A DNA stretch of 64,000 nucleotides from a virus. This document shows positions 6,558 through 50,569 of this stretch, one piece after another. The notes below the pieces were generated by a model. That model was given only the letters and a program-made list of their open reading frames with translations, searched no databases and was not told the DNA's origin. Made by a program: the position numbers and the translations under genes. Where the stretch lies: IMG/VR virus record IMGVR_UViG_3300037961_005428, positions 1 through 64,000 of that record. One strand, written 5' to 3'. Numbering within the stretch: position 1 is the stretch's first letter; each line of letters starts with the position of its first letter.

Positions 6558-7312
6558 TCGTCCACCTCTTGGTCAAACACGATGAGGAGGTATGAGCCGT
6601 CCAAATCTCTCACCACAAACGGGGCGCTTTCCCCCATGTGGAACTGCACCATTTTGTCGGGCACAGTGTTGAGAAGTTCGGGGAGCCAGTGAGCGTAGTG
6701 TGATTGGTAGGACTCTGCCGTACCGCTGATAGGCTCAGCCTCCACAGCGGCGAACATTTTCCCTTTGTTCTTCTGCTCTGCCATCAGTGCCAACTCGGTG
6801 TCTTTAGGTCGGTAGTCTACCTTACAGGTGATACCCGACCCGATGACCTTGCTCGCTTTGCTGATGCCGTAGAGGTCTGTCCCAGTGACATTGCCACAGG
6901 CGGGTAGATTGGCTTCCCCAAACGACTGCCACATGTTGTCCTCCGCTTTACCGACGACACGCTCAATGAGGGGCACATCGGTTTCGGAGGCGATGTAGGT
7001 AGACGACGGCAACTCAAGGCTGGACCGTCCGGCCTTCACCTGTATCGGTCTGCCTCGTGCAGATTGGCTGACTGTAACTTCCGCAGCCTTTGCCGCCTTC
7101 AAGAACTCGCTGAACCGCACGAGGTCCGAGATGTAGATTTTCCCGGTGTCCCCGTCGTGGCAGTCCATGCTGCGACGCAGGTAATGCGTCAACGCTCCGA
7201 CCGCTACGGTGATTTGCTCAGCCTTGACTCGGATGGCAAGGTTGTCCACGCCTTTGGAGAAGGTGTCAATGAACGACAGCAACTCCTTCCGGCTCGCTGT
7301 AAAGGCGGGCAT
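6554..7312 (-). CDS. divergent PCNA-like sliding clamp
   Basis: 252 aa, clamp-like pattern, C-terminal FHMGESAPFVV...YLLI; located between PolB and RFC. Confidence 0.65.
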   Translation of the reverse strand: MPAFTASRKELLSFIDTFSKGVDNLAIRVKAEQITVAVGALTHYLRRSMDCHDGDTGKIYISDLVRFSEFLKAAKAAEVTVSQSARGRPIQVKAGRSSLELPSSTYIASETDVPLIERVVGKAEDNMWQSFGEANLPACGNVTGTDLYGISKASKVIGSGITCKVDYRPKDTELALMAEQKNKGKMFAAVEAEPISGTAESYQSHYAHWLPELLNTVPDKMVQFHMGESAPFVVRDLDGSYLLIVFDQEVDE

Positions 7313-7321
7313 TCAACCACC

Positions 7322-8359
7322 TCACACACTACGGGAGCGGAGTTCGGCGAGGCCGAGCCATTCGGCTGGCTGTCCTTTCTTGGTGACAAAGAAGGTCCGC
7401 TCTTGACCTTGAAGGTCGGCGTTGGTCTTGCACTTGGTGAACTCAACCTTGTAGCGGGTTTCGCCAGTTGGCTTGCCATCCTCGTCTCGGACTACTTCGT
7501 CCTTGCACCACAGGATTTGAGTGAGGTCGTTGTTGGCGTCCTTCTCCCAAACGAACTTCCAACCGTCGTGGCTGTACTCGTCGTCGCCCGACTTGATGTG
7601 CGTCTCCCAAAAGACATCCACGCCAAGGAAATTCAACTGTCGGCACAGGGCAGTCAGTTGCTTGAAACGAGTCTTTCGGATGCTCCAGTTCCAACCGATT
7701 TCTTTGTTGAGTTTGGAGGCGGCTGCTTCAATGGCATCCTTGGCATCCATCTCAAGGTCGTAGATTTTCATGTTGTTGATGCACACATTGTCAAACTGGT
7801 CAACGGCGGTGATGAGCAGGGCCTTGAGAACTTGCCCGTTGAAGCCGGGCTCCTTCTGTTTCTTGGCATACTCAATCGCAAAGCGACACAAGTCCATGAC
7901 ACGCTGGTGAGTCTTGGGGTAGTCAAAGGCGGTGCGGTCGTTGGGCTGTGTGACCCACGGGTTCCAAATGCGGATGATGTCATCGGCACCGGGATAGTGG
8001 GCCTGCTTACAATCGTTGGCACCAAAGTCAAAGTCGTAACACCACATCATCTCGTTGTCCTTGCGATAGTGCATGAAGGCGTCCATAGCGATGCCGGTCT
8101 TGCCCCGACCACTGTGCCCACCAATACCCATGAAAATGGACGAGCCGTTGATGGCCACTTGCTCCTTGAACTCCTTGAGGAGTTTGGGGTAGTTGCTGTC
8201 TTGATACAAAGGCTTGGCCTCATTGACGACAGGTTCGGCTGACTCATTTAGCGGAAGGGTAGTCTGTGCTTCGTCCACGACTGGTTCTTCTGCCTCTTGG
8301 GCTTGGGCTTGCTCGGCGATGTGGTTCTTCAAAATGTCAAATGCACTCATGTTCTTCAC
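7322..8359 (-). CDS. RecA-superfamily P-loop ATPase (RadA/Sak4-like recombinase)
   Basis: Walker A GHSGRGKT, YDFDFG, LLITAVD, FWETH, VEFTKCKT. Confidence 0.75.
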   Translation of the reverse strand: MKNMSAFDILKNHIAEQAQAQEAEEPVVDEAQTTLPLNESAEPVVNEAKPLYQDSNYPKLLKEFKEQVAINGSSIFMGIGGHSGRGKTGIAMDAFMHYRKDNEMMWCYDFDFGANDCKQAHYPGADDIIRIWNPWVTQPNDRTAFDYPKTHQRVMDLCRFAIEYAKKQKEPGFNGQVLKALLITAVDQFDNVCINNMKIYDLEMDAKDAIEAAASKLNKEIGWNWSIRKTRFKQLTALCRQLNFLGVDVFWETHIKSGDDEYSHDGWKFVWEKDANNDLTQILWCKDEVVRDEDGKPTGETRYKVEFTKCKTNADLQGQERTFFVTKKGQPAEWLGLAELRSRSV

Positions 8360-43931: not shown

Positions 43932-44138
43932 ATGCACGCTCTTGAACATGCTTGGCGCATCATCAAGGGCAAAGAGGATGCTCCAAATTATCGCAAAGCC
44001 ACGGGGCCAAAGAAGTGCGGCAACTGCAAGGCTTGGGATTCTTCAAAAACTGACGACCCTATGACGGGGTATTGTGAGTGGTACGATTTTACTTGTCGTG
44101 CCGACCATGTGTGTGATGCTTGGGCGGGGAAGAAATGA
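43932..44138 (+). CDS. AW..IK-tagged HiPIP-like Cys4 protein
   Basis: MHALEHAWRIIKG; Y...CGNC...C...CDAW. Confidence 0.65.
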   Translation: MHALEHAWRIIKGKEDAPNYRKATGPKKCGNCKAWDSSKTDDPMTGYCEWYDFTCRADHVCDAWAGKK

Positions 44139-44719
44139 GTGAACAGTGCCCTTGTTGCAGCGTGATGGTTGTCAAAGACCTTAACCGCTGGTTCAAGGAG
44201 AAGTGGGTGGATGTGTCTCGCAAAGACAAGGACGGCAAGCACCCACCTTGCGGGCGCAAGAAGGCCAAGAAGGGGAGCAAAGGTTACCCTAAGTGCCGGC
44301 CGTCAGTCAAGGTGTCAAGCAAGACGCCGAAGACCTCCGGTTCTATGACTGAGGGGCAGAAGCGTGCGGCGACCAAGCGTAAGCGGTCCAAGAAGCAAGG
44401 AGTTGGCGGAAAACCGACGATTGTCAAATCACTGGTGCTCAAGCGACCTGTCAGTCCCGAGGCCAAGCGTCACAAGTTGGAATACGACACCAAGTACGAG
44501 TCTACGCCCGAGCGTGTCAAGTATCGGGAAGAACTTAAGCGTGAACGCCGACATAGAGGTATTGACGGTAAAGGGGGTCCGGACATGAGTCACACGAAAG
44601 ACCACACCCTTGTCGCCGAAGACCCTCACACCAACAGAGCCCGCCACTTCAAAGAGCGAGGCACACTCAAGGGCGACCCTATGGACATCGCTTGGCTCCT
44701 TGTCAAAGGTGAGTGGTGA
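44120..44719 (+). CDS. multi-module basic protein (DUF5872-like plus HNH-like) with C-terminal AW..VK tag
   Basis: LNRWFKEKWVD..PCGR..YPKCRP; DMSH...E...NRAR; GDPMDIAWLLVKG. Confidence 0.7.
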   Translation: MGGEEMSEQCPCCSVMVVKDLNRWFKEKWVDVSRKDKDGKHPPCGRKKAKKGSKGYPKCRPSVKVSSKTPKTSGSMTEGQKRAATKRKRSKKQGVGGKPTIVKSLVLKRPVSPEAKRHKLEYDTKYESTPERVKYREELKRERRHRGIDGKGGPDMSHTKDHTLVAEDPHTNRARHFKERGTLKGDPMDIAWLLVKGEW

Positions 44720-44947
44720 TGACCGAATACCCCTTTGACAGTTGGGGCTTTCAGTTCGTGCTCACGCTGGACGACCACCTGCAAATCATGCAGGACTTAC
44801 TTGACCACTACGCTGACATCATTGACATGCTGGAGGACGCCTGCGACAACAACGATGCGTTGCTCGCCGACCTCGTGGACGCTCAAGAGCAATACATGAT
44901 TTTGCGACAGGCTTATGAAAAAATGAAACATGGGGGTAATTGGTTGC

Positions 44948-46072
44948 ATGCTGAGTCCAACTGACGCCGCTTGGTCTGTCCTTGAAGAAGGGCACCGTGT
45001 GGACAAGGCCCTTCCGTTCCTCATTCCGGCGGCGATGTTAGCCTATGGCGGCTATCAAGGTGCGAAAAATGTCAAGGAAAATCGTATCACTGACCCCTTT
45101 TTAGGGGTGGTCGGTACCGAAGGCAATGATTCACTCGGTAGTAACCTTGCCGAGTTTGGGACAGGTTTTGCACAGGGCGTTGTCCCCGTCAAGGGTGGAG
45201 GCTTTTTGGCCCGGAAGTTTGGTGGCCGCCGTGCAGCAAAGCGTGCAGCAGCACGAGAAGCCGCAGAAAAGGAGGCGGCTGAGGCTGCGGCCCGCCATCA
45301 AGCGTTGTCTGCTCAACAGCGAAGGGGTGTGCTACAGCGGGAGAATCCCGAAGTTGGCTATGTGTTTGGTGAAGTAGCCCCTTATGTTTCTCCTTCCCAA
45401 CTTGGTGCTGTTCGCCAAACGATGAACGCTGCCCAAGCACGGGCTGCCCGGCTGGCTCCGAGAGCACAAGCACCAGTCGCTCCGTTGACACTGGGTCAGC
45501 GTGCAAAGTTGGTTGCAGCCACAGGCGCTGGTGCAGCCACTGCTTATGCTCCCGAAATTATGATGGCACTTGGGCTCGCTGGGAGTCCGCCCACCAGTAC
45601 AGAATTTGGAGGATTTGGTGCAACAGGCACAGGCGGTTTCGGCGCAGGGCAGGGTGGTCAACAGGGCTTCCAACTCGCAGGTCAACAGTCCGGCGGCGTT
45701 GGTGGTGTGCAAAATGTCGGTGTGAGCGGTATGGCTGACCACGACATTTTCCAAGGCAAGCAATTCCAGTCGGCTCCGACATCATCAAATATGCAAGCCC
45801 CTTCCATCAAACAGAAGGGGACCCCTATGTCGCTCGGAAACAATCTCATCAACTCCACCTTGAGTGTAATGGAACGCAACATTATGAAAGCCAGTGTGTG
45901 TGAACGCTGTGGCAAGAAAGGCTGCGTCAACAAAATGCACTGCATGGCGAAAGCCGATGATGGCAAAAAGAAAAAGCCAGCCCACGGCATGGTCATTGTC
46001 ATTGGCTCCAAAGCCGGCCCGGGCCCGTCAACGAACGGCAAGCGGGACGACAAAAAGGACGACAAAGAGTGA
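44948..46072 (+). CDS. Gly/Ala-rich tagged protein with hydrophobic segments
   Basis: MLSPTDAAWSVLEEG...VDKALPFLIPAAMLAYGGY. Confidence 0.7.
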   Translation: MLSPTDAAWSVLEEGHRVDKALPFLIPAAMLAYGGYQGAKNVKENRITDPFLGVVGTEGNDSLGSNLAEFGTGFAQGVVPVKGGGFLARKFGGRRAAKRAAAREAAEKEAAEAAARHQALSAQQRRGVLQRENPEVGYVFGEVAPYVSPSQLGAVRQTMNAAQARAARLAPRAQAPVAPLTLGQRAKLVAATGAGAATAYAPEIMMALGLAGSPPTSTEFGGFGATGTGGFGAGQGGQQGFQLAGQQSGGVGGVQNVGVSGMADHDIFQGKQFQSAPTSSNMQAPSIKQKGTPMSLGNNLINSTLSVMERNIMKASVCERCGKKGCVNKMHCMAKADDGKKKKPAHGMVIVIGSKAGPGPSTNGKRDDKKDDKE

Positions 46073-46164
46073 TACTCAAGGGCTGTTTCGCTCCCTCTCA
46101 GCGTCCAGCCCACCTTAGAAGGTTTTATTTGGTCGTGTATTTTGGGGTTATATGAGAGGATTGT

Positions 46165-46701
46165 ATGTCAAGCGGTAGCCAAAGCGTTGACCAAAGTGAA
46201 ATTCGGCTCATGGGGCTTATCCTCATGCAGTCGCTAAATGTAGGACTTGCCATCGGTGTATTCAACGCCGGCATTTGGATTGATTTAGAGAGCACGATGC
46301 TGAATGCATTTACTTATGCGATGGGTGCGTTTTTCGTCCAAGGCATAGCGTATTACTTCTTCAAAATGTTCTTCCAACAGGGCATGGACGACAAGGCTCG
46401 CCAGTCCGAGATGGAGCGAGAGCGGCGCAACCGCTACCGGGCTATGGAGATGACTTTTGAGCGCCGCCGTCAAGACATGGAACTTCGCATGCAAGAGGCA
46501 CAACTTGAACAAGAGTTGCGCTGGATGGAAAACAACCCCGGAAAAATGCCACCGATGAGCCTTTCTGACCCTATTTCGCTTGACACTGGCAACTTTAATC
46601 CCGAAAAGGGCGATAAGACCCTTTCATTGGGTGTCTCCTTTGACGAGGAGAAGCCACTCACCAATCGTGGGGCTGATGGCAAGTTCAAGAAGAAGGAGTG
46701 A
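46165..46701 (+). CDS. membrane protein (2 TM) with coiled coil
   Basis: Two hydrophobic helices, then charged heptads. Confidence 0.75.
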   Translation: MSSGSQSVDQSEIRLMGLILMQSLNVGLAIGVFNAGIWIDLESTMLNAFTYAMGAFFVQGIAYYFFKMFFQQGMDDKARQSEMERERRNRYRAMEMTFERRRQDMELRMQEAQLEQELRWMENNPGKMPPMSLSDPISLDTGNFNPEKGDKTLSLGVSFDEEKPLTNRGADGKFKKKE

Positions 46702-46943
46702 GGCCTGTGGGCTGGCTGTTCAAAACGCCAAGTGATGATGCAACGGAGTCAACGCTTCGTGCTATTCACATGGCGAACACTTTGGACACCGCTTATGAGC
46801 GCACATGGGGCTGGGTTAAAACGGTCATTTTCTCGTTTATCAGCGCCCTGTCTATCAGTGCCTTTGAGTATCACAACGATTGGAGTTTTTGGGAGCATAC
46901 TGTTAACTGGCTTGCCAACGAGGTTATGGGTTGGTTTGAATGA
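46698..46943 (+). CDS. small membrane protein
   Basis: VIFSFISALSISAF hydrophobic segment. Confidence 0.65.
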   Translation: MRPVGWLFKTPSDDATESTLRAIHMANTLDTAYERTWGWVKTVIFSFISALSISAFEYHNDWSFWEHTVNWLANEVMGWFE

Positions 46944-47656
46944 GTGCAGCAGCGGGCTCTGCCATGGTGGGTGGCGTTATTTTTGCCAAGGAACTTTACC
47001 ATTATTGGGTTCCCCGCAGGGTCGGTGTGTATGGTCCACCGCTGGCTGGAAAGACAACGCTGGACAAATACTTGACCACGCCCGGTGAAATGGAAGACAT
47101 TCCTCTTGACAAGCGCACAACTCACACAAAGGTGCTTGGAAAATTCCTTCTTCCCCGTGCCAGTCGTAAGCGTGTGAAGTACAAGGGTGAAACTCGTGTG
47201 ATTCATTCCGCAGATATGGGCGGCGAACAGCGGTTTTGGAACCTGTGGGTGGACGATATGGTCAATCGGGGCGTAGAAGCAGTGGTGTTCATGTTTGATG
47301 ACCGTGCAAATGCAGGTGGAGATACCACCGTTGACGCTGTTGGCGGCTTCAAATTCTTGGTGGACGCTCTCATTTACCGTCAATATCGCTATAGAAACCT
47401 ACGAAGTTGGTTGAAAGGCAAGAAGTACACGCCCAAAGTCATTCTTTTGGTTGCTAACAAAGCCGATAAGTGGTGGGATGAGCAGGCAAATACGCTGTGG
47501 CAGCAGCAGCGTCTTGGAGAACATCGCATTTTTGACCCGTTTCGGGAAGACCTTATTCGTCTACAAAAGGCCGGTATACCTACACGAAGGGGTATGATGG
47601 CCACCCGAATTGGCTGGAATGTGGAAAATACGATGGTGGATTTGCTGTCAACATGA
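46940..47656 (+). CDS. Ras/Arf-superfamily small GTPase
   Basis: G1 GPPLAGKTT, G3 DMGGE, VVFMFD, G4 NKAD; hydrophobic N-terminal helix. Confidence 0.88.
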   Translation: MSAAAGSAMVGGVIFAKELYHYWVPRRVGVYGPPLAGKTTLDKYLTTPGEMEDIPLDKRTTHTKVLGKFLLPRASRKRVKYKGETRVIHSADMGGEQRFWNLWVDDMVNRGVEAVVFMFDDRANAGGDTTVDAVGGFKFLVDALIYRQYRYRNLRSWLKGKKYTPKVILLVANKADKWWDEQANTLWQQQRLGEHRIFDPFREDLIRLQKAGIPTRRGMMATRIGWNVENTMVDLLST

Positions 47657-47667
47657 GGTGAACGAAC

Positions 47668-48651
47668 ATGAATGGATTACGACGCTACGGGCAGGTCCCG
47701 CAACAGGGAAATGGCAACTTATACGCTCTTGACGCTAATCAAATGGCGGCTTTGTCGCAACAAGGGAGCCTTTCGCACGAACAATTGATTGAAATGCAAG
47801 GTGCGCAGCAAGGAATGCGAGAAGCGGCTGCAAAAAGCAACATTGAGGTGCCAAAAGTCAATTTTTACCCCAGTCGGCACCCCGATTCACGAAAAGCACG
47901 CAAAAAAGACATCAAACAGGCCCGAAAACTGCTCAAACCGAGCAAAAGAAGCATTTTCAACCCCTTACGGTGGGTTGGAATGAAGTATCGGTACAACAAA
48001 TTGCATGAAAGGTGCGTTGTGGACGGCTGTGACTGCGTTGAACTCATCAAATACGACAATTTGTATGCTAAAATCTGTGATGAGGACACTGGAGAGAGCC
48101 TTTGGGACCTTTATTGGACAAATCCGGTCACAGGAGAGGTTCAAGCCTTCGTAGCGGCTGAAAATGTCACTGATGGGCGCAAAATGAGGGGTACATACTG
48201 CCCCGAACACCTTCATTTGTACCATTTATTGTGTAAATGGGAGGATGAGAACGACAAAGTGCGCCTTAACAGCAAATCCGGTATGCGAGAAATGGTCAAA
48301 AAGGGCGTTTCTACGGTCGCTGTACCCATTTCAATGGTCAAAAAGAAGGACAATACACCCCAATTTTTGGCCAAATATGAGCCTTTTTTCAAGCAATTAG
48401 AGCAGGATTCACGCCAAACAAGCGGTATTTCCATCCTTCATTACCAAAATCCGGTATCAAAAATGAATGATGTGACCATGATTGTGTTTGATTTGCGCAT
48501 TTTTCAGCAGGAATTAGGTCAAATTGACCAACAAAACCCGCCCAGCATCCTTGATGCAGTGGGTAAAATGGGTATTACCCTCCCCGATTCCCCACCTCTC
48601 CAACAGGTTGAAGAAGAGAATGGCCCTCAGTTTGGCCAAGGGCAGGCTTGA
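47668..48651 (+). CDS. hypothetical protein with Cys/His Zn-binding motif
   Basis: CVVDGC...YCPEH. Confidence 0.7.
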   Translation: MNGLRRYGQVPQQGNGNLYALDANQMAALSQQGSLSHEQLIEMQGAQQGMREAAAKSNIEVPKVNFYPSRHPDSRKARKKDIKQARKLLKPSKRSIFNPLRWVGMKYRYNKLHERCVVDGCDCVELIKYDNLYAKICDEDTGESLWDLYWTNPVTGEVQAFVAAENVTDGRKMRGTYCPEHLHLYHLLCKWEDENDKVRLNSKSGMREMVKKGVSTVAVPISMVKKKDNTPQFLAKYEPFFKQLEQDSRQTSGISILHYQNPVSKMNDVTMIVFDLRIFQQELGQIDQQNPPSILDAVGKMGITLPDSPPLQQVEEENGPQFGQGQA

Positions 48652-49295
48652 AAGCAGGTGAAAACATGTTATTCGGAAACAATCAACAGCAAAGCGGTGC
48701 ACTGAACCTTGGTGCGCCAGCCAATACTCCACAACAGCCCTTCCAATTCGGTCAGCAGCCGCCCAGTGCCATGCAAAACTTTGGCCAAAGTGCGTTTGGT
48801 GGCAGTATGATGCAGGGTATGGGTATGAATCCGGGCATGATGCAGCAACCCGTGGCCCCGCCCAGTGAAACTGAAATTCAATTGGCACTCATGCGCTCTG
48901 TCGCACCTATGGACAGATTCGTGGCATCAGCCCAAATGGCCACGCTTGTGCAGATGCTGAACGACCTTGTTAGTTTCTCAGTGCTGGAAGTGATGAAAAA
49001 CGCCACTTTTGTCATCAACGAGGACGATGGTACCATGAAATTGGATGTTACTTCACTGCCTTCCAACCTTCAAACCATGAGTGCGGAGAATGTCACCAAT
49101 CAATTTAACCAACTTCAAAGCACCAGTCAGCAAAACATCCAGCAAATGGAGATGCAGCAGCAACAAATCCTTGCTATGGCTCAGCAATCGCTGATGGGTG
49201 GGGCACTTGCAGCGGCTATGGCTGACGAAGGTATGATGCAAAAGGTGGGTGGCGGAGTTGGCTCCTTCGCTCGTAGTATGTTGGGAGGACGATGA
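48648..49295 (+). CDS. Gln/Met-rich protein
   Basis: Low-complexity N-terminus, helical C-terminus. Confidence 0.7.
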   Translation: MKAGENMLFGNNQQQSGALNLGAPANTPQQPFQFGQQPPSAMQNFGQSAFGGSMMQGMGMNPGMMQQPVAPPSETEIQLALMRSVAPMDRFVASAQMATLVQMLNDLVSFSVLEVMKNATFVINEDDGTMKLDVTSLPSNLQTMSAENVTNQFNQLQSTSQQNIQQMEMQQQQILAMAQQSLMGGALAAAMADEGMMQKVGGGVGSFARSMLGGR

Positions 49296-49296
49296 T

Positions 49297-49548
49297 ATGG
49301 TAGATAGTGGTATACCGGGATTTTACTATGGCTTTGCCATGTCAACACGCGACATTTTTGCCCCAAAGAAGAGCGTCATTGTAGATATGGTGATGGTACA
49401 GGTTTTGACCATCATCGTCACCCTTTCACTGGTGTTGTTGACGGGCTCGGGTAAGTTGTCTTCGGACACAATGGCTTACATGATGGGAGCCATGATGGGT
49501 GCGATTTTGCTTGCTACGGGGATTTACACCCGTATTTCACAACAATAG
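49297..49548 (+). CDS. small 2-TM membrane protein (holin-like size)
   Basis: GGAGG RBS; two hydrophobic segments. Confidence 0.65.
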   Translation: MVDSGIPGFYYGFAMSTRDIFAPKKSVIVDMVMVQVLTIIVTLSLVLLTGSGKLSSDTMAYMMGAMMGAILLATGIYTRISQQ

Positions 49549-49800
49549 TCACCACTTGTCTTGTGGACAGGTGGATGATTTGAGCGAGGCTTTTGCTCGC
49601 ATGAAGCATCCACAGTCTTTGCACCGTGTACCTGTCCAACTTGGGCACTCTTGACAGATAGCGAGTCTGCGACTCCGCTCTTCGGGACTTACTTTTCGTC
49701 GCAAAGCCACATCTCTTGCGGCCTTTGATAGCGAAACAGCCGTCTCCTTTGTCATCGGGATTCCGGCGACTTTGACATCCATTTTGGGCAGTCTTGGCAC
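49549..49800 (-). CDS. DUF6171-like Cys-rich protein
   Basis: RLAICQECP...CKDCGCFM..K...CP..KW. Confidence 0.75.
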   Translation of the reverse strand: MPRLPKMDVKVAGIPMTKETAVSLSKAARDVALRRKVSPEERSRRLAICQECPSWTGTRCKDCGCFMRAKASLKSSTCPQDKW

Positions 49801-49858: not shown

Positions 49859-50569
49859 ATGGGAGGTCGGCAGACCAAGCGTTCTTGCCCTTTTTGCCAA
49901 GACCCCGACCGTGACAAACTTGAGATGAGCATTGCTCAAGGCATCGCTGATGTTCGCACCATGGACCGCGATAAAGGCTGGCGGGCCAACACGGCAGAAC
50001 GCCACATGAGAAACCACGCTGGTGAAAATTTAGAAGGTTCCAACTATCGCTGCGTGATATGCACGGACGACCACCGAAGCATGTACGAAGTCGCTTATTT
50101 TGACGAGGGCATGACCACCGAAGAGATTGCCCAAGAGTTGAATTGCAGTGAGGCTACAGTCTACAAGCACATGAAAGAGCACTTCCAGCCCATCGTCAAG
50201 CAAAGTGCATCGGCTATTGTGTCCATTAAGGTGGGTCAAGAGGCTGATATCCTGCGACACAACACTGAGCGCCTCAATGAAAAGTTGTCTCGCTACATGG
50301 ACGAGGTCAGCATCCACGATGACGGGGCTGTTTCGGACATGGTTAAGTTGAGCAAAGAGATTCGTGAGTCCATCAAGGACTTGACTTCGTTCCAAAAGGC
50401 GTGGGTTGAACCCGAGGAGAAAATGGTCGCAAACACCATCAACATCCTCAAAGTTGAAATGGCGAAAGAAAGTCCCGATACTTGGAAGCGTGTCAAAGAA
50501 GCCTTGCTCACACAGGAAGGCGACGAAATTGACATCAGCGGCATGTTAGAGCAGGAGGATAGCGCATGA
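49859..50569 (+). CDS. tandem Zn/HTH DNA-binding protein, terminase small subunit candidate
   Basis: Two CxxC...HxxxH HTH units plus coiled coil. Confidence 0.55.
   Translation: MGGRQTKRSCPFCQDPDRDKLEMSIAQGIADVRTMDRDKGWRANTAERHMRNHAGENLEGSNYRCVICTDDHRSMYEVAYFDEGMTTEEIAQELNCSEATVYKHMKEHFQPIVKQSASAIVSIKVGQEADILRHNTERLNEKLSRYMDEVSIHDDGAVSDMVKLSKEIRESIKDLTSFQKAWVEPEEKMVANTINILKVEMAKESPDTWKRVKEALLTQEGDEIDISGMLEQEDSA

Follow-up and report, generated by a model that had tools for sequence, protein, structure and literature searches.

We analysed 64,000 nucleotides (nt) of viral DNA (the window), positions 1 to 64,000 of the record IMGVR_UViG_3300037961_005428, a 96.5-kb viral contig estimated to be 90% complete, and examined a plus-strand cassette in it that includes a gene for a small GTPase. 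Six same-strand open reading frames (ORFs), g1 to g6, fill positions 46165–49548 and form the tight, co-oriented operon that an earlier note on this DNA had described. The successive intergenic gaps are −4, −4, +11, +14 and +1 nt after correction of two gene starts. By comparison with relatives, g5 most likely starts at ATG 48666 (MLFGNN...) and g6 at ATG 49297 rather than GTG 49249, which gives a g6 protein of 83 amino acids (aa) that matches those of relatives. As read from its sequence, the GTPase is virus-encoded and flanked by small membrane proteins in one operon. The features of the locus are as follows; TM stands for transmembrane.

46123–46130, plus strand: TATA-like box TTTTATTT, about 35 nt 5′ of the g1 start, read directly
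46154–46159, plus strand: Shine–Dalgarno-like GAGAGG upstream of the g1 start
46165–46701, plus strand: g1, membrane protein, 178 aa
46698–46943, plus strand: g2, single-TM protein, 81 aa, sharing 4 nt with the end of g1 and 4 nt with the start of g3
46940–47656, plus strand: g3, small GTPase, 238 aa
47668–48651, plus strand: g4, orphan protein with a probable Cys/His metal site, 327 aa
48666–49295, plus strand: g5, Gln/Met/Gly-rich protein; the ORF is open from TTG 48648
49297–49548, plus strand: g6, two-TM protein, 83 aa, final gene of the operon; the ORF is open from GTG 49249
49549–49800, minus strand: g7, Cys-rich DUF6171 protein, 83 aa (PF19668, E = 1.8e-9; phrog_13558, E = 1.7e-15)
49859–50569, plus strand: g8, 236 aa, N-terminal CxxC motifs and a sigma-70 region 4/LuxR-type helix–turn–helix (HTH)

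The g3 protein carries the G1 motif as GPPLAGKT (residues 32–39, nt 47033–47056), G3 as DMGG (residues 92–95, nt 47213–47224) and G4 as NKAD (residues 173–176, nt 47456–47467). A G5-like motif is also present, as MATR in the window and as ISA(Q/R/L) in the distant family members. The earlier note had called the GTPase intact, and this holds well beyond the window: G1, G3 and G4 are kept in all 125 distinct relatives, drawn from 161 loci, with an intact ORF in 161 of 162 loci. An AlphaFold2 model built from a 52-sequence alignment had a predicted local distance difference test (pLDDT) score of 89.6. Foldseek searches with this model returned at least 500 small GTPases from the Protein Data Bank (PDB) at E < 1e-3. 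When these were structurally re-aligned with VIA-align, the top 29 were all members of the Arf family (Z 16.1–17.9, root-mean-square deviation 2.3–4.2 over 152–175 residues), including Arl8b, Arf6, Arl1, Arf1, Arl3, Arl6 and the Asgard ArfR. They were followed by a RagA-like protein (Z 15.9), the SR-beta chain (Z 15.2) and Rab (Z about 15), and the model shows the six-stranded Ras-like G-domain fold common to these proteins (Z 15–17.9). Searching PDB sequences with a profile of the family gave GerdArfR1 (8OUN) as the best match (E = 6.7e-8), the alignment starting at the N-terminal helix and ending past switch II; Arl8A/B came next (E = 3e-5 to 5e-4), and Arl10 was also found. GerdArfR1 is an Asgard ArfR (PDB 8OUN/8OUM; bioRxiv 10.1101/2024.02.28.582541). 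Judged by its motifs and model, g3 is a genuine guanine-specific small GTPase of the TRAFAC class (extended Ras superfamily) with an Arf-like fold.

We then compared g3 with the Arf family proper. Shared features are the G-domain fold, a helix before β1, a switch I of the GExxxIP type and NKxD. Switch II of g3 reads DMGGEQRFWNLW, and the Arf switch II/interswitch signature wDxGGQxxxRxxW appears in the window as ADMGGEQRFWNLW, with the Gln itself missing in this lineage; across the family the stretch reads DxGG(Q/E)xx(F/Y)Wx(L/M)W, where Arf has DVGGQDKIRPLW. W103 is nearly invariant, and HMMER aligns the switch II stretch to the same motif in Arl8 and GerdArfR1. In contrast to Arf, g3 lacks Gly2 and has about 60 residues more, with inserts after switch I, before β5 and after G4. 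It also has Glu96 at the usual position of the catalytic Gln; among the 125 relatives this residue is Q in 62, E in 54, D in 7 and H in 2. Whereas Arf has known GEFs, GAPs and coat proteins, the viral protein has orphan partners in a tailed archaeal virus. The Pfam Arf model PF00025 did not match the window g3 at E up to 1 and matched 11 of 52 relatives, at best with E = 0.0048; TIGR00231 (small_GTP) reached E = 0.006, which is under its cut-off. The Arf/Ras-like character proposed by the earlier note is thus upheld for fold and motifs, whereas membership of the Arf family proper is not established, given the missing PF00025 match and a tree position outside the Asgard Arf and Rab proteins (see below).

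The hydrophobic N-terminal helix had also been predicted correctly. In the AlphaFold2 model it spans residues 2–23, it is hydrophobic throughout (mean Eisenberg hydrophobicity 0.64 over residues 2–16), and the family profile aligns it to the amphipathic helix of GerdArfR1. We refer to it as an anchor and not as a proven Arf-type switch helix.

The other five products are two presumably soluble or peripheral proteins (g4 and g5) and three small integral membrane proteins (g1, g2 and g6), and the GTPase gene is embedded among them by stop/start overlaps. The g1 protein has a strong TM segment at about residues 15–37 and a weaker, aromatic- and Gly-rich hydrophobic segment at about residues 47–70, followed by a charged, coiled-coil-like region, a disordered tail with an invariant L155–G156 and a basic end; at least one TM segment was predicted in 69 of 70 relatives. 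The g2 protein has a Trp-rich C terminus and a single TM segment (70 of 72 relatives), and g6 has two TM segments (56 of 57). In g4, residues C116, C178, H181 and H183 are invariant and C121 and H186 nearly so, which suggests a probable Cys/His metal site (C116, C121, C178, H181 and H183). This protein also has a conserved basic motif, VNFYPSRHPxPxKARK, and disordered, Gln-rich ends; its model has a pLDDT of 70, with the core (residues 70–210) at 80–92. The g5 protein is 14% Gln, with a disordered N terminus (MLFGNN..ALNLG), a folded middle and a Gly/Ala/Met-rich hydrophobic C terminus. These features bear out the gene anatomy given in the earlier note.

None of the six proteins was recognised by Pfam, PHROG or NCBIfam, which gave sub-threshold noise only, and blastn and tblastn searches of a phage collection found no match. 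Profile searches of the PDB with g1, g4 and g5 found no solved relatives, and the ESM Atlas held no usable match for g4 or g5. With the g4 model, Foldseek found nothing in the PDB at E ≤ 1e-3, a wide VIA-align search peaked at Z 4.2, and a search of BFVD returned one unnamed viral protein (E = 5e-5). Co-folding of the GTPase, GTP and Mg with g4 (residues 60–300) gave a score of 0.11 (mark 0.32), which speaks neither for nor against binding.

Two kinds of short sequence recur in the disordered regions. An (A/P)LxLG-type motif is found in the g1 tail as TLSLGV (about residues 152–158, nt ~46618–46638, containing the invariant L155 and G156) and in the g5 N terminus as ALNLG (about residues 17–23 of the 215-aa ORF, nt ~48696–48716, with one Leu invariant). 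It may be a docking motif common to g1 and g5, and chance is also a possible explanation. Gly/Gln/Phe-rich low-complexity stretches (GFG, FGQ and QQG) lie at 45500–45750, within a 380-aa protein encoded upstream, at 47668–47830 and at 48666–48870. Within the cassette they occupy the two termini of g4 and the beginning of g5, and disordered regions are concentrated around the cassette; such Gly/Gln/Phe-rich regions are possibly self-associating.

To place the cassette in its genome, we annotated the rest of the window. The minus strand at 1–38 kb encodes a family B DNA polymerase, a clamp-loader-like AAA ATPase, an SNF2 helicase and a PD-(D/E)XK nuclease, and the plus strand at 38–64 kb encodes a T4-type large terminase and a portal. 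On the basis of these genes, we assign the window genome to the magroviruses (order Magrovirales), which are tailed viruses. Magroviruses combine a tailed-virus head module with an archaeal-type replisome in genomes of ~65–100 kb and have been linked to Marine Group II archaea (PMC5434244), a description that agrees with both the window genes and the 96.5-kb record. Among them, the SNF2 helicase is a group A trait (Philosof et al., PMC5434244). The single-cell genome AG-422-I20, labelled Candidatus Poseidoniales, includes a relative of the GTPase on a 106-kb contig (106262 bp, CACGHY010000002.1, locus L079), and the full cassette is present there. This contig ties a magrovirus directly and physically to its host, and it supports the assignment of the host to the Poseidoniales.

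The GTPase family appears to be confined to viruses. At E ≤ 1e-3 it comprised 447 clusters; all of these were unnamed and came from marine metagenomes, and many lay on contigs of 90–106 kb. An exhaustive phmmer search of 1.8 billion representatives gave 78 hits, which belonged to the family only and included no cellular GTPase. In a set of prokaryote contigs with one genome per species, the family was found on five contigs. One is the Poseidoniales single-cell contig; the other four are short (8–16 kb) and come from metagenome-assembled genomes labelled Maricaulis, Parvibaculum and Promethearchaeati. Those examined bear the viral cassette, and we read all four as binned viral DNA. Across 81 genomes of the host order we found no cellular relative of the GTPase, the sole match being the viral contig itself, and PF00025 was found in none of 41 sampled Poseidoniales genomes.

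We examined whether the neighbouring genes are conserved with the GTPase, a check that the earlier note had set beforehand, by tblastn of the window genes against 73 IMG/VR loci. They are conserved across about 70 collinear viral contigs, in a more divergent group at 40% identity and in two distant groups. Genes g1–g6 and g8 keep the same order in nearly all 73 loci; g1 was found in 70 and g2 in 72, and the GTPase is the best conserved gene of the cassette (59–96% identity). The 40%-identity group, to which the single-cell contig L079 belongs, retains all six genes together with a Cys-rich gene and the HTH gene, the latter being kept in L079. A hidden Markov model (HMM) of g1 recovered it in this group and in one of the distant groups, represented by P0129. 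In the two distant groups the GTPase is 33–44% identical, and the core reads in the order two-TM or g1-like protein, ~75-aa protein in the g2 slot, GTPase, g4-like protein and Q-rich 'MGLFG' protein. This core stands beside different neighbours: in the P0149-type viruses (at least 140 contigs; L119-type) it follows the major head protein by three small genes, and in the P0129-type viruses (L117 and L114) it comes directly after a GroEL-like chaperonin. Relatives of g4 adjoin the GTPase in every group examined. Because g6 is absent from the P0149-type group, we consider it accessory and the core to be the five genes g1–g5.

The chaperonin genes themselves lie at L117:1820–3481 and L114:2250–3785 (phrog_5725, E = 1e-42 to 1e-49); Philosof et al. 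placed magrovirus chaperonins in the replicative cluster (PMC5434244). In loci L032–L034 additional genes separate the GTPase from g4. The genomic context of P0166 and P0193, which are the most distant members, was not found in IMG/VR.

These observations bear on whether the cassette is a functional unit at all. Its six genes could be neighbours by descent only, with a cytosolic GTPase that serves, for example, in the control of translation or packaging, and gene order is indeed conserved across whole magrovirus modules (PMC5434244). Since these modules are collinear anyway, relocation of the block is better evidence of functional coupling than collinearity. The five-gene core, by its order, was inherited and relocated as a unit among magrovirus groups, and its retention in two distant groups beside different neighbours argues that it behaves as a functional unit. 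Overlapping stop and start codons, an order that is kept while the neighbours change among three virus groups, and the hydrophobic N-terminal helix of the GTPase all count against mere descent, which we consider very improbable. From the gene overlaps, g3 is predicted to be translationally coupled to integral membrane proteins. Together, these data make it probable that the operon encodes a virus-specific, membrane-associated GTPase switch module.

A module of this kind could serve a membrane function unrelated to making or releasing virions, such as superinfection exclusion, receptor masking or interference with host division or secretion. Small viral membrane proteins often serve exclusion, and an Arf- or SR-beta-like GTPase could mimic or block a GTPase step of the host. 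SR-beta is itself a GTPase related to Arf, with a hydrophobic anchor at its N terminus that keeps it at the membrane, and it was among the structural matches given above. Unlike SR-beta, however, the viral protein is encoded in a late-gene context, and no SRX/longin-type partner was recognised among the viral products; PF09439 (SR-beta) gave weak matches in only 2 of 52 relatives (best E = 0.089). Exclusion genes are usually variable and accessory, whereas few parts of the genome are as conserved as this cassette, which persists in distant groups. We regard such a function as quite unlikely.

Considering that an archaeal GTPase is known to drive vesicle formation, we examined whether the viral protein might be a form of it. 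ArvA is a euryarchaeal small GTPase with an N-terminal helix that drives vesicle formation in Haloferax, and the ArvA–ArvB–ArvC (OapABC) operon is an archaeal vesiculating operon in which the ArvA gene stands beside a gene for a Zn-ribbon protein (PMC10927574). The viral cassette resembles it in its euryarchaeal setting, in a GTPase with an N-terminal membrane helix and in an operon with a metal-binding protein. For comparison, we recovered ArvA, ArvB and ArvC from eight Thermoplasmatota loci. The stretch from G1 to switch I is common to ArvA and the viral family (hhalign probability 95.6% over 40 columns), and both contain R(I/V)G(I/V)YGPPxAGKTTL ... EIPxExR. The likeness is, however, limited to these 40 columns, and HMM scores of 19–23 bits compare with 35.8 for GerdArfR1. 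The G3 motif is DTPG in ArvA as against DxGG followed by Q or E in the viral family. Neither g4 compared with ArvC (DUF2072) nor g4 and g5 compared with ArvB (DUF2073) exceeded 0.3% hhalign probability, PF09845 (ArvC) was absent from the viral genome while control genomes matched, and the viral cassette adds three integral membrane proteins.

A phylogenetic comparison, which the earlier note had proposed, set the viral clade against Asgard Arf, Rab and ArvA. We used quick maximum-likelihood trees (LG+G4) with small sampling, long branches and no eukaryotic sequences, and two approximately unbiased (AU) tests. In a tree of 29 sequences the viral clade paired with ArvA (SH-aLRT 95). Adding ten outgroup GTPases dissolved this pairing into a trichotomy of viral, ArvA and Asgard Arf, Arf-like and Rab sequences, with the viral clade outside the Asgard clade (SH-aLRT 95 in these small, long-branched trees). 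A viral+ArvA clade cost 0.09 log-likelihood (lnL) units (AU P = 0.49), and forcing the viral, Arf and Arf-like sequences together cost 12.5 lnL units and was narrowly not rejected (AU P = 0.064). Because the tests reject neither grouping and the larger tree is a trichotomy, we file the viral GTPase under neither Arf nor ArvA; on these trees and its model, it is a distinct, deep, virus-specific lineage with an Arf-like structure.

These data also bear on the idea that the virus brings a vesicle-forming GTPase that its host lacks, and uses it to take over host membrane for factories, decoys or vesicle-borne spread. The shared G1–switch I stretch, the ArvA precedent, the presence of a Zn-ribbon partner in that operon and the AU result for viral+ArvA all favour it. 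So does the host survey: ArvC (OapC, PF09845) was found in 94 of 201 sampled Thermoplasmatota and in 0 of 81 sampled Poseidoniales, and the host order seems to be without the ArvABC vesiculation operon. On the other hand, the G3 motifs differ, g4 and g5 are unlike ArvC and ArvB, and the viral/ArvA pairing does not survive the added outgroups. Moreover, naked tailed virions are normally released by lysis. We consider ArvA-like vesiculation unlikely as the task of the cassette.

The surroundings of the operon point to a late task. In the window, leader-tagged putative virion proteins are encoded on one side of the cassette and the HTH, terminase and portal genes stand on the other, and in the loci compared it is always among head and packaging genes. 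Upstream of g1, a TTTAT element is found at a similar distance in most related loci, and we infer that the TTTTATTT box is a promoter. At the other end, g7 is convergent to g6 and abuts it, marking the 3′ boundary of the operon; it was found in 61 of 73 loci. The g8 gene was found in 73 of 73, and its product exceeds the cut-offs of PF08281 and PF00196; it may be a (late) regulator or a small terminase.

A GC-rich inverted repeat (GGGCTG...CAGCCC, ~46080–46111) follows the upstream gene and precedes the TATA-like box, and some relatives (for example, L009) have other inverted repeats at this position. As a terminator the hairpin has a folding energy of −17.7 kcal/mol, a z score of only −1.5 against shuffled sequences and no entry in the terminator scan list, and we do not claim it as one. 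The neighbouring proteins share a leader-like peptide, PTDAAWSVLEE near the N terminus of the 380-aa protein (44930–46072) and DPMDIAWLLVKGEW at the C terminus of a 199-aa protein (44120–44719). In locus L033, the genes that separate the GTPase from g4 are two leader-tagged genes (6721–7534; FDLAWSLLKA and FEYAWALLKA) and an AbrB-like gene.

This position would suit a membrane-tethered assembly site, in which the GTPase and membrane proteins mark a patch of host membrane for the start of the prohead or for DNA packaging. In T4, head assembly is initiated by the portal at the inner membrane with the aid of gp40. The constant company of head and packaging genes is consistent with such a site: HTH, terminase and portal genes lie downstream in the window, the L119-type cassette comes three genes after the major head protein and the L117/L114 cassette after a chaperonin, and in L033 leader-tagged putative virion genes are inserted within the cassette itself. 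However, none of g1–g6 has the leader tag of the neighbouring putative virion proteins, nor did Pfam or PHROGs reveal any similarity to scaffold, portal or chaperone families. To our knowledge, tailed-virus assembly generally needs no GTPase. An assembly site, too, seems to us an improbable explanation.

Egress, lysis timing or an assembly site, the roles put forward in the earlier note, we infer from gene anatomy and position. Among them we think virion release the likeliest, because the cassette lies among head and packaging genes, no wall-degrading enzyme was recognised among its products and, in an archaeal host, a peptidoglycan lysin of the bacterial type is not expected. As the earlier note had observed, none is seen at the cassette: Pfam, PHROGs and NCBIfam found no lysin-like family among the six products (the rest of the genome was not screened for lysins). 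Egress is further favoured because the clustered proteins with one or two TM segments resemble phage lysis cassettes. Like the holin genes of lambdoid phages, g1, g2 and g6 encode small proteins and cluster near packaging genes, and g6 (83 aa, two TM segments) and g2 (81 aa, one TM segment) fit holins in size and topology. Unlike in holin cassettes, no endolysin was recognised among the six products, and g1 is long, with a coiled-coil-like region. We know of no lysis cassette that contains a small GTPase. How tailed archaeal viruses leave their hosts is not known (PMC10791045), and this lack of a known machinery is a further reason to favour egress; putative archaeal-virus holins have been described (PMC11706807).

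In the mechanism that we propose, the GTPase, once it has bound GTP, would be held on the host cytoplasmic membrane by its N-terminal helix, as for Arf, Sar1 and ArvA. There, the GTPase together with g1, g2 and g6 would recruit or release g4 and g5 and so deform or breach the host membrane. This action would come late in infection and depend on GTP. That the job of the cassette is egress seems possible to us, at somewhat less than even confidence, and the full statement, a GTP-switched membrane module that controls or executes virion release, is offered just as tentatively. A bolder form, in which a virus-only GTPase of deep Arf/ArvA stock and its own membrane proteins cut, vesiculate or open the archaeal membrane to release tailed virions, is more doubtful.

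Several observations weigh against egress by a GTP-switched module. The position among head genes fits a role in assembly just as well, and membrane-sited assembly and ArvA-like vesiculation fit the data almost as well as egress does. No holin family of Pfam or PHROG matched any of the six proteins; holins are too diverse for exclusion by sequence. The roles given to g4 and g5 are guesses, as neither has a recognisable fold or family. Because the window's lineage has Glu and not Gln at the catalytic position, GTP hydrolysis may be slow or unconventional. The N-terminal helix had an 18-residue hydrophobic moment of 0.19, equal to the mean of shuffled sequences, and so showed no clear amphipathicity. 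Finally, collinearity within one virus group is weak evidence, and the relocation argument rests on three groups.

Searchable magrovirus papers and archaeal-virus surveys mention no GTPase, and general literature searches found no description of the cassette. If egress is its task, the cassette would be the first case in any prokaryotic virus of egress driven by a GTPase, and if the cassette vesiculates membranes, the virus would supply an ArvABC-type activity that is apparently missing from the sampled host order. A conserved, virus-specific, Arf-like GTPase tied to membrane proteins is a concrete and testable candidate for egress, and its five-gene core is small enough to be expressed and assayed outside the uncultured host. 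Magroviruses are among the most abundant archaeal viruses of the surface ocean, and their Marine Group II hosts are themselves abundant in the ocean. Prokaryotic membrane GTPases of the Arf/ArvA-like kind, which are few, bear on how eukaryotic membrane trafficking arose, and the family would also give them a viral branch.

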